DNA of 53,727 nucleotides from an uncultured Methanosarcinales archaeon (GCA_964388715.1 CAYMBN010000009.1:1-53727), one strand, 5' to 3'; counted from the first letter of the stretch, positions 21,148-38,229 are shown. A program made the numbers and translations. Notes: generated by a model from the sequence alone, not told the origin.

Positions 21148-22932
21148 TTATAAATCTTTTACAATTTCCTTAGCTTTTTCTTCAATCATTTTTTTATTTG
21201 GCAATGCCCTTAATTTCTTCAATATTCCTTTTTTTCTGTATATTGGTGTTTCAGTTAATACTTTTTCAGCTCCCTCAGGTTCTCCTCTTTTTAAAGCATC
21301 TATTATTTTGTTTTTAACTTCCTCAACAGTGTCTTCAATGTTTATTATTTCACTAAATTTAAGGTGAAATGTTTTTTCAGATTTTTTTACCAAAAATAAA
21401 ATACCAGCACTTTCAACTTGCTTAACCTTAAATTCAACACCTTCTCTTAACTCAACATTTTTATTACTTAGTAAATTTGATGTTTGATCATGATGTTCCT
21501 TATCATATTTTTTAATTATTCTTACCAATTGTCCTCTAGTAAAAAACCCCTTACCTTCCTTAATCCTTTCAACTTTATTTCCATTAACCTTTTTAAACAC
21601 ATTATTATACCATCCCTCTTTTTTGCTTAAAAACAATATTAACTTATGAAGTATTGCAAGATCATGCCTAATCTTAATATAAAATTTAACTTCATGTTTC
21701 TCAAATGATTCCTTTAACGATTTAGCATTGTCTATAAGATTTTTATTAACCTCTTTATCAAAACCTTCTCTCAACTTATTTAAAACATCTTTTTGATTAT
21801 TATGTGATCCACCTATCAATTCACTTTGTGAATTAATTAACTTCTTAAACTCTTCAAGATCACTTTCTAATGCAGCTAACCTTGTTTTTAATTCCTCAAC
21901 AACCACGTTGAATCCTTCTTTGAATTTTTCATTGGTTTCTTCAACCTTTTCAGGATCAACTTTTTTAAGGAAAACAACCAATCCTTTCTTATATTCCTCA
22001 AGTATTTCCTCTACTTCTTTATACATAGCAACGTAATTATGAACATTCTTAGATAAAACCTTAACAGCTTTCTCATCATAACCAATAACCTTTTTATCAA
22101 GCTTTAACAACTCCTCATTTATTTTTAATATATCCTCAACCAATTTATTTAACTCATTAATTAATTTTAAATTTTTAACTTTTATAAATTCTTTATTTCT
22201 CTGAACCTCTGTTTTCCTTATATATTCTATCTGTGACATGTTCATTCCTTTTTTAAGAAGTTGTTTAACCTCTTCTTCATTATCAGTATAACTCAAAACC
22301 TCTTTATGTTTTTCACCTTTTCCAGTAATTGCAGCTTCTATTAAATCACCTGGGAAATTTTTTCTTATTTTTTCCTCAATTTCATCCTTAAATTCCTTAT
22401 TTTCTTCTTTAGCCATTGCCTTTTTCCTTTTTCCATTAAACCCTAAACATAATTTTAAATGTTCTTCAACCAATCTTTTCTTTTCCTTTTCTAATTCACC
22501 AATCTTACTAACCTTCTTCTCCATCTTTTTAACTTGATGCTCAGAAACCTTTTTCTCCATCTTCCTTCTTCCAAAAACAAATGCAAGAGCTACTAAAGCA
22601 ACTGCACTACCTTTCAAAAAAATTGGTTTACCAGCAGTCTTCTTAACACTTTCCCATACACTTTCTACTTCACCTGGTTCCATCTTTAATTCAATCAATT
22701 CAACAAGATCATTATACTTATCTTCACCAATATATTCCTTAACTTCTTGCACCGTAATATAATTTTTAATCTCATCCAATAAATCCTGATTTTCAGTTTT
22801 TTTTGCTCCTGCAATAGACTTTTCAAGAGCATCCAAAAACCTTTCTTTAACAATATTTTCTTCAGCTACAACAAAGATATTCATAACTAATAAAACCATT
22901 ACAAACATCCACATAAATCTCTTAAATTTCAT
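21148..22932 (-). CDS. Signal peptide, short ectodomain, single TM and long cytoplasmic coiled coil
   Basis: N-terminal MKFKRFMWMFVMVLLVMNIFVVA; TM GSAVALVALAFVF followed by GRRK; ATGA overlap with the upstream gene. Confidence 0.8.
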   Translation of the reverse strand: MKFKRFMWMFVMVLLVMNIFVVAEENIVKERFLDALEKSIAGAKKTENQDLLDEIKNYITVQEVKEYIGEDKYNDLVELIELKMEPGEVESVWESVKKTAGKPIFLKGSAVALVALAFVFGRRKMEKKVSEHQVKKMEKKVSKIGELEKEKKRLVEEHLKLCLGFNGKRKKAMAKEENKEFKDEIEEKIRKNFPGDLIEAAITGKGEKHKEVLSYTDNEEEVKQLLKKGMNMSQIEYIRKTEVQRNKEFIKVKNLKLINELNKLVEDILKINEELLKLDKKVIGYDEKAVKVLSKNVHNYVAMYKEVEEILEEYKKGLVVFLKKVDPEKVEETNEKFKEGFNVVVEELKTRLAALESDLEEFKKLINSQSELIGGSHNNQKDVLNKLREGFDKEVNKNLIDNAKSLKESFEKHEVKFYIKIRHDLAILHKLILFLSKKEGWYNNVFKKVNGNKVERIKEGKGFFTRGQLVRIIKKYDKEHHDQTSNLLSNKNVELREGVEFKVKQVESAGILFLVKKSEKTFHLKFSEIINIEDTVEEVKNKIIDALKRGEPEGAEKVLTETPIYRKKGILKKLRALPNKKMIEEKAKEIVKDL

Positions 22933-37087: not shown

Positions 37088-38229
37088 AGCTCTTCCTCCA
37101 ATTTTTTCATTTCCTCTTTACTTACCTCTAGTCCGAACTCAATTCCATTCCAGACTTTTTCTATAAAATACCGAAGAGTTTGGTCAGTGATGCTAAACAA
37201 ACTATCTTCTTTAGAAATTAAATCAACATCAATTAATCTAGTCAACAAATTTTTAGTAACAGGAGCACTCCTGTAAATCATTCGAGAAACTTCAGACAAT
37301 CTTAAACCTTGTTCTGAAGCCAAAACCTTTAATATACTTTTTAATAATCCACGACCTCTTGCCCTGGACAATGAATTAACAAGAATAGACTCACAAGCAT
37401 TATGTATTATACCAGTTTTAACTAATGTCTGAGAAATAAAAGCTTTTTTAACATTTTTATATTTTGCATAACCAAGTGCAAGTGCATAAGCATAAATAGG
37501 AATACCTTGTGATAATCTAAATATTGCATCAACCTCTTTATCCCCAACTTTAACAATCTTTTCAACAAGCTCCTTTACCTTCTGTCGATCCAATCCCTCA
37601 ACAAGATGTTGTTCAAACCCAGAACAAATCTTTTTCATTAACTCAACAGCAGAACCAGAAACAACAAACATTGTATTTTCAAATTTCAGCTCATTAAAAA
37701 AAGAAAAAAAATCCTTAATCTGTGAGAAATTCTCAAAGTCAAGGACGTGCCAAAATTCGTCTAAAAACAACACAACTTTTTTACCAAGTTGTTCAGAAAA
37801 ATTAAATCCTAACTCTAATAACAATTTATGATCTGGTTTTATTTTCTGTAGCTCGTTATAAACAAGTTCAATTGTTTTCTGTGCTTTCTTAGGTAACTCA
37901 CTCCTAATTTCCATTAAATCTTCTATCCTTGTTCCAACCGGCTTCTTAAAAAAATAAGAACATAGGCTACTGATAAAGGCAACAGAAAAATCTTCTGGCG
38001 TGATGCTTGCCTTTTCAAAATCAAAATAAGCAGCCACAACATCTTGCTGCTCAAGAACTCGCATATAATTTTTTATAATTGTTGTTTTGCCTATGTATCT
38101 CTTTCCAATTAACGCTATGTTAGACTTTTTACCATGCTTAAAATCCTCTACTCTTTTCCGAAGTAATTCTACAAAGAAATCTCGTCCTGTAAATAGTCCT
38201 AATTCTTCCTTACTTAATTCAGGGTTCAT
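37084..38229 (-). CDS. Archaeal AAA/ATPase_2-family P-loop ATPase with C-terminal winged helix
   Basis: FTGR motif, Walker A GKRYIGKT, Walker B VVLFLDEF, VVSGSA, SQGIPIY, C-terminal LSEVSR...L.RL...DLI.K wHTH. Confidence 0.88.
   Translation of the reverse strand: MNPELSKEELGLFTGRDFFVELLRKRVEDFKHGKKSNIALIGKRYIGKTTIIKNYMRVLEQQDVVAAYFDFEKASITPEDFSVAFISSLCSYFFKKPVGTRIEDLMEIRSELPKKAQKTIELVYNELQKIKPDHKLLLELGFNFSEQLGKKVVLFLDEFWHVLDFENFSQIKDFFSFFNELKFENTMFVVSGSAVELMKKICSGFEQHLVEGLDRQKVKELVEKIVKVGDKEVDAIFRLSQGIPIYAYALALGYAKYKNVKKAFISQTLVKTGIIHNACESILVNSLSRARGRGLLKSILKVLASEQGLRLSEVSRMIYRSAPVTKNLLTRLIDVDLISKEDSLFSITDQTLRYFIEKVWNGIEFGLEVSKEEMKKLEEEL

Follow-up and report, generated by a model that had tools for sequence, protein, structure and literature searches.

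A conserved locus of Woesearchaeota-type archaea combining a four-helix membrane anchor family, variable, predicted outer domains and a probable operator-linked regulator

We analysed a stretch of 53,727 nucleotides (hereafter the window), which constitutes contig C9 of a 1.30-Mb genome that is 95.75% complete and 0.47% contaminated. Seven genes, named A to G, follow one another on its minus strand, from A (38229-37084) to G (22932-21148), with successive junctions of -4, +1, -4, -7, +8 and -4 nt, and are presumably co-transcribed. A preliminary description of this DNA had proposed seven coupled genes on one strand with a particular order of membrane topologies. Both proposals were borne out, the hydrophobic segments agreeing with the proposed topologies (the single transmembrane (TM) segment of E fell below the threshold of our script and was read from the sequence instead). 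The limits given in that description, 21148..38229, fit the seven genes but not the extent of the locus, since gene H (21045-20182) and a promoter/operator region (38236-38545) also belong to it. The features are as follows.

37084..38229, minus strand: gene A, 381 aa; AAA+ domain (ATPase_2-like) and C-terminal winged helix, by Pfam
34481..37087, minus strand: gene B, 868 aa; signal peptide, polytopic membrane domain and cytoplasmic helical tail; conserved core
32788..34479, minus strand: gene C, 563 aa; soluble charged helical protein of the conserved core, from a family of 22 in related loci
32015..32791, minus strand: gene D, 258 aa; signal peptide, 4-TM anchor and outer helical hairpin with a Cys pair
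29820..32021, minus strand: gene E, 733 aa; a signal peptide leads into an ectodomain that has a single two-Cys repeat, then one TM segment with a basic stop-transfer and cytoplasmic helices
22929..29811, minus strand: gene F, about 2260 aa if continuous; signal peptide, 4-TM anchor and long outer part with SLT-like domain, M23 domain and two-Cys repeats
28798..29016, minus strand: SLT/GH23-like domain within F; retains the putative catalytic Glu and GLMQ but has an altered third motif (AYN)
26983..27270, minus strand: M23 peptidase domain within F; both zinc-ligand motifs (HxxxD, HxH) intact, E 6e-16, over the Pfam cut-off
21148..22932, minus strand: gene G, 594 aa; signal peptide, short ectodomain, one TM segment, cytoplasmic helices
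20182..21045, minus strand: gene H, about 287 aa; a soluble bundle of helices that is conserved, profile match E 5e-8
38236-38545: promoter/operator region upstream of A
38236..38531, no strand assigned: five operator palindromes starting at 38236, 38252, 38375, 38480 and 38512, just behind three TATA-like boxes
38290..38358, minus strand: hairpin that contains a C-rich segment and lies between two promoters; -26.8 kcal/mol, z -4.6

The contig is archaeal and of Woesearchaeota type. It encodes archaeal EF-1alpha, EF-2, S28e, L7Ae and GluRS (Pfam), its GC content stays between 0.26 and 0.35 throughout, and in GC3 the operon genes are similar to housekeeping genes. Database records of a gene conserved beside the related loci are mostly labelled Woesearchaeota, Nanoarchaeia or Nanoarchaeota; the remaining ones carry 'uncultured Methanosarcinales' or other labels, which we take to be placeholders. 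We infer that the window genome and its relatives belong to the order Woesearchaeales. A chimeric contig was considered and ruled out by the flat GC and GC3, the archaeal translation genes and the expected gene order on either side of an assembly gap.

Other parts of the window hold further genes of note. At 257-13766 (plus strand) a protein of 3413 aa bears about eight LamG/ConA-like domains, and behind its gene come three unannotated genes for charged or coiled-coil proteins; together they form a probable giant adhesin operon. Three overlapping unannotated genes past the second N run (17812-19930, minus strand) have no relatives in the loci examined. A tRNA-Gln(TTG) gene (38653-38725, plus strand) diverges from the operon promoter, and two tandem genes at 42074-44699 (minus strand), each encoding solely a C-terminal PEP-utiliser mobile domain, adjoin a HAD hydrolase gene.

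The core proteins match no meaningful family in Pfam, NCBIfam or PADLOC. A matches ATPase_2/AAA (E 2e-7, Pfam), and B gives a weak coiled-coil-type Pfam match alone, with no NCBIfam or PADLOC family. Structure models of D (pLDDT 86) and H (pTM 0.83) are confident and all-helical. Fold searches with both among solved structures returned generic helical matches, none of them significant: the D hairpin matched CHMP4B with Z 8.1 amid many generic hairpins, and the best match of H (Z 11.2) was generic as well. The ESM Atlas yielded nothing usable for H and, for D, merely sub-0.9 leads to unnamed archaeal clusters, and word-based homologue searches produced one known match in one run and none in another. 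H is preceded by a 102-nt spacer containing a TATA-like box and may have its own promoter.

Several proteins of the locus share modules. D and F have a common 4-TM anchor (39% identity over 102 aa, E 2e-20), to which B is weakly related (hhalign 81%, 46 columns), and the two-Cys repeat occurs three times in F before the assembly gap, once after it and once in E. The preliminary description had listed these two modules together with shared cytoplasmic helices; the first two hold up, but homology was detected neither for the cytoplasmic tails nor for E and G, and likewise not between H and C or between D and a 130-aa 4-TM family described below. No homologue of E was detected in relatives, and G occupies a conserved slot in the locus, an equivalence of position alone. 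In 87 of 198 anchors of relatives, the anchor is fused to a further TM segment and a cytoplasmic tail. Since such fusions are common, D plus E and F plus G suggest themselves as split versions of one unit, although E and G are too divergent to confirm it.

The largest gene, F, is split into two ORFs in the assembly by a run of 100 N at 24754-24853. Runs of 10 or 100 N are present on seven contigs and resemble scaffold gaps. The sequence on each side of the gap in F resembles a different half of a single two-Cys repeat unit, so that F is likely one gene of about 2260 aa, a length that depends on continuity across the gap. The two hydrolase domains reported for it fared differently. The M23 domain is nearest to MepM/ShyA DD-endopeptidases and has its zinc ligands intact. 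The SLT-like match is weak (E 5e-4 for the whole protein; 25.6 bits as a domain against a cut-off of 21.3), the domain has no sequence match in PDB and, being partly degenerate in its motifs, is of doubtful activity. Neither part of F contains a Pfam wall-binding family. The charge bias of the F loops places everything after the fourth TM segment outside, and the hydropathy topology is in line with the earlier proposal that the hydrolase domains are extracellular. The pair of SLT and M23 domains was found in none of the relatives examined. The window genome has another SLT domain, a clear one, in a 727-aa protein within a cluster of pilin-like genes (L234, G000:C4:1-15017), whose N-termini, judging by their motif, we take to be of class III type.

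We then considered how the locus is distributed over 401 genomes of the order, a set that includes genomes flagged as unpublished (G374, G209 and others); beyond such genome tallies, no result draws on sequence regions of these. A search with D alone matched 49 of them. A profile of the anchor gathered 839 clusters at 50% identity and matched 114 genomes, 48 of them with values below 1e-23 and all others above 1e-19. The profile was built from the strong class, whose strength is therefore in part a matter of construction. For comparisons of gene order and content we used 45 relatives, namely 44 of the 47 strong relatives plus G441. It turned out that A, B, C and, further on, D follow one another on one contig in 19 of the 45, many loci ending at contig edges. 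The order A, B, then D was found in 22 relatives, that from D to H also in 22, and the entire run from A to H in 12. The synteny predicted for relatives is therefore real: the regulator, the polytopic protein, the helical protein and the 4-TM anchor keep their order in 19 of 45. Among five genomes with split loci, B lies elsewhere in four and A in two, next to B, A not being found in the other three. Nor was A found in any of five genomes without a listed anchor match. A second winged-helix gene lies inside many of the related loci. Searches in other orders found weak anchor homologues alone.

The block is usually followed by H, a gene for a 130-aa 4-TM protein and a PAC2 gene, which also occur without the upstream block. 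The 130-aa protein, which is highly conserved and has no Pfam family, is found in 155 of the 401 genomes, mostly in single copy and usually paired with H. In the window genome only H of this trio stayed at the locus. The possibility that the 130-aa gene is hidden in the second gap was ruled out, as the gene was found on contig C8 (L106 9469-9858; G000:C8:31469-31858).

The preliminary description had cast the ATPase A as the engine of a machine. Among 25 A homologues, however, 15 retain Walker A and seven retain Walker B, the same number as have both, although the A protein of the window has both intact. The best-conserved part of the family is the winged helix, with a conservation of 0.67 over its columns compared with 0.36-0.46 elsewhere. 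Moreover, the palindrome TATACC-N4-GGTATA precedes A in all 24 relatives inspected, with 71 sites in total. A matrix was built from these 71 sites of 24 training relatives, with the window genome held out, and the cluster in front of A in the window includes the best score of that held-out genome, 22.9 bits. Further held-out genomes also have copies (three in G379 and five in G272), and no copy precedes B in G134, a genome in which A was not found. The related loci, 2.09 Mb in all, contain 74 strong sites, training sites included, and 69 of these lie within 400 nt of A. A wide regulon was considered and rejected: the 31 sites found compare with 21-25 in shuffled sequences, and the excess is the local cluster. 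A thus combines an AAA+ domain, a C-terminal winged helix and a conserved upstream palindrome, as expected of an ATPase_2-winged-helix regulator. These marks of an autoregulating DNA-binding protein leave the role of engine unsupported, and A is probably an autoregulating transcription factor, not a motor; its predicted binding to the operator would make it an autorepressor.

Two minor observations concern the same region and operator. An operator-like site (15.5 bits) lies directly behind a TATA box before a 340-aa gene without Pfam match (L233 2758-3816; G000:C1:10757-11815), a possible second target of A judging from the site. The hairpin at 38290..38358 gave no match in Rfam, where the sole match was the tRNA, and similar C-rich hairpins occur within 250 nt in about 10 of 24 relatives; it is possibly a small RNA or leader, perhaps under the same operator.

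The C-termini of the anchor family, predicted to lie outside, carry varied cargo. We scanned with Pfam 241 entries from the relatives' loci, a selection of larger or membrane-bearing ORFs, and supplemented the scan with an OmpA-like profile of our own. Peptidoglycan-directed domains were found in the loci of 14 of 45 relatives, in seven of 20 families. A recognisable peptidoglycan hydrolase is present in three relatives (SLT in G154, GH73 in G032, and Amidase_2 with GH3 and LCP in G379) and an OmpA-like binding domain in 11, eight by Pfam and three solely by our profile, with the borderline G188 excluded. Neither was recognised in 31, several of whose loci are truncated. The 150 library representatives of the anchor family include 21 with an OmpA-like domain and two with SLT, and most of the 116 scanned with Pfam have no match. 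The remaining cargo is generic: PKD, fn3, TIG and papain-like domains. That peptidoglycan-directed domains of differing kinds occupy the corresponding loci of relatives supports the first proposal, but the display of hydrolases is not the defining trait of the locus. The hydrolases are swappable cargo.

One OmpA-like cargo domain aligns to the OprF, PorE-type and Pal domains. In OprF, the Asp of the GHTD motif binds the stem peptide; the OmpA-like domains have Ser where OprF has this Asp. The anchor tree largely follows family, places the two SLT carriers apart and requires three changes for OmpA; seven of the 11 OmpA-like cases belong to one family, and the tree is compatible with a single origin of this cargo. 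Within one family, two members bear unlike glycan cutters after their related anchors. An odd number of hydrophobic segments precedes each of the 10 peptidoglycan-directed domains checked, and an even number precedes six of seven FHA or phosphoesterase domains, so that, with topology taken from hydropathy and charge only, the former are predicted to lie outside and the latter mostly inside. Two individual loci deserve mention. L211 (2352-11799) encodes an anchor fused to a GT4 glycosyltransferase and then a protein with an internal twin-arginine-like TM segment, amidase, GH3 and LCP. L195 (8068-12900, plus strand) encodes a 1611-aa exported protein with an OmpA-like domain, divergent from gene A in G369.

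The locus is, then, a real and conserved system, for which the first reading pointed the right way but erred about the motor and took too narrow a view of the cargo. We give about an even chance to its being an autoregulated cell-contact platform of Woesearchaeales that grips bacterial walls and opens them locally. A would bind the palindromes behind its own TATA boxes and hold the operon silent until some signal lifts this block. Thereupon B, D and F would assemble in the membrane, as a physical complex, on a cytoplasmic helical scaffold made of C, the tails of B, E and G, and perhaps H. OmpA-like outer cargo would grip the wall of a bacterial partner, and the wall would be opened locally by the M23 cross-link peptidase and the SLT-like domain in the window genome, and elsewhere by GH73, SLT, or amidase with GH3. 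The outcome would be a stable contact for feeding; the scaffold would hold and probably signal, apparently without pumping. In favour of such a platform are the conserved gene order, the spread of wall-directed domains over seven families and their predicted position outside, the operator and the intact M23 ligands. Counting against it are the 31 of 45 relatives with no recognisable peptidoglycan-directed domain, the otherwise generic cargo, the concentration of OmpA-like cases in one family, the Ser in their GHTD motif, the degenerate SLT-like domain, the split loci and the genomes in which A was not found. A bolder version, in which about one in eight sampled Woesearchaeales genomes encodes an inducible membrane complex for docking on a live bacterium and opening its wall, the host range being set by exchangeable tips, we put forward only tentatively. 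If true, it would mean a dedicated apparatus for archaeal parasitism of bacteria. The locus makes bacterial hosts a testable question in any case, through soluble domains, a regulator-operator reporter and marker genes for the choice of lineage, and the type of cargo may predict the type of the host's wall.

The same platform might instead display ectoenzymes and binders that harvest wall debris of dead cells and other polymers, with no living bacterial partner. The mixed hydrolase cargo, which includes papain-like peptidases and GH3, and a tight regulation that would suit an inducible feeding operon are compatible with such scavenging. However, the conserved genes include no transporter, the cargo seen most often is a binding domain without catalytic function, and scavenging would hardly call for long scaffolds in the cytoplasm, so we regard it as rather unlikely. 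It is unlikely, too, that the locus is a general surface-display or envelope scaffold whose peptidoglycan domains are occasional passengers and whose target is perhaps archaeal or abiotic, even though 31 of 45 loci lack recognisable peptidoglycan cargo and, in other orders, distant anchor homologues adjoin genes for a type IV pilus ATPase, platform and pilin-like proteins in four of 20 loci. Against chance passengers, five hydrolase families and OmpA-like domains recur in the loci, and OmpA matches concentrate there: of the 21 places with Pfam OmpA in the 401 genomes, nine are in or beside these loci, in five families.

A receptor or signalling array, in which outer domains detect material of the wall and pass the signal on to A through FHA, phosphoesterase and glycosyltransferase domains inside the cell, would account for the two-sided architecture, the sensor-regulator-like features of A and the second winged-helix gene inside many loci. 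No kinase was seen, however, and the near confinement of the operator to the A promoter implies little output beyond the operon, which makes this reading improbable. An ATP-driven secretion or injection machine for predation appears very improbable: the Walker motifs of the window's A are intact, the operon comprises several membrane protein genes, and secretion systems of bacteria, too, come with OmpA, FHA and wall hydrolases, but only seven of 25 homologues have both Walker motifs, A was not found in some carriers, and no VirB11, FtsK, tube, pilin or pore family is encoded.

The locus was also compared with known systems. The eight genes include no VirB11/T2SSE ATPase, platform or class III prepilin of type IV pili, Tad or the archaellum, although the same Pfam scan found T2SSE in another locus. 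Pfam and NCBIfam revealed no FtsK-like ATPase or WXG100 protein of type VII (ESX) systems, and there were no matches to the tube, sheath, baseplate or TssL/M of type VI or contractile injection systems. PADLOC anti-phage models gave weak ATPase/HTH matches for A and the winged-helix gene and none for 10 of 12 proteins. Pfam detected no PspA/Snf7 or ABC family among the locus proteins. Bacterial operons that combine PspA/TM-Snf7, AAA+ and OmpA resemble these loci in uniting an AAA+ protein, coiled coils, membrane anchors and OmpA-like domains, but an OmpA-like domain in an archaeon finds no wall of its own cell to bind. In size and domain order A resembles archaeal ATPase_2 (PF01637) AAA+-winged-helix proteins, from which its family differs by a specific operator and frequent catalytic degeneration.

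Woesearchaeota wall hydrolases and the idea of bacterial hosts are already in print, the latter proposed from lone transglycosylase genes (PMC8204110, PMC9723730). The closest precedent for F is fam00969, large murein-transglycosylase proteins of Pace- and Woesearchaeota (Castelle 2021, PMC8204110; also PMC9723730, PMC10936187) with a median of 1947 aa and one TM segment, a signal peptide in 0.79 and GH23 in 0.53 (PMC8204110). Both are large, exported and archaeal, with GH23/SLT-like domains, and attachment to bacterial hosts has been proposed for both, but F has four TM segments after the signal peptide, an M23 domain and a conserved regulated locus, whereas the relevant sections of that report describe no operon for fam00969 (PMC8204110). 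An archaeal M23 domain of bacterial type, as in F, was noted in four Nanoarchaeia genomes among modular archaeal peptidoglycan hydrolases (Strock 2025, PMC12352652). These combine a catalytic with a wall-binding domain (PMC12352652), whereas F has no Pfam wall-binding domain, is membrane-anchored and lies in a multi-gene locus. Cultivated DPANN, according to the account in PMC11291902, live on archaeal hosts, which counts against contact with bacteria. In the open-access literature searched, we found no description of the operon, the anchor family, the OmpA-like cargo or the operator, and the system is apparently undescribed.

Type IV pili and Tad systems of DPANN share the role in surface contact that is proposed here, and in four of 20 loci of other orders distant 4-TM anchor homologues are adjacent to genes of this pilus-like kind. 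In L214, L216, L217 and L221, all from another order, they lie between genes for pilus ATPase- or platform-like proteins and genes for pilin-like proteins, one of them with a collagen repeat.
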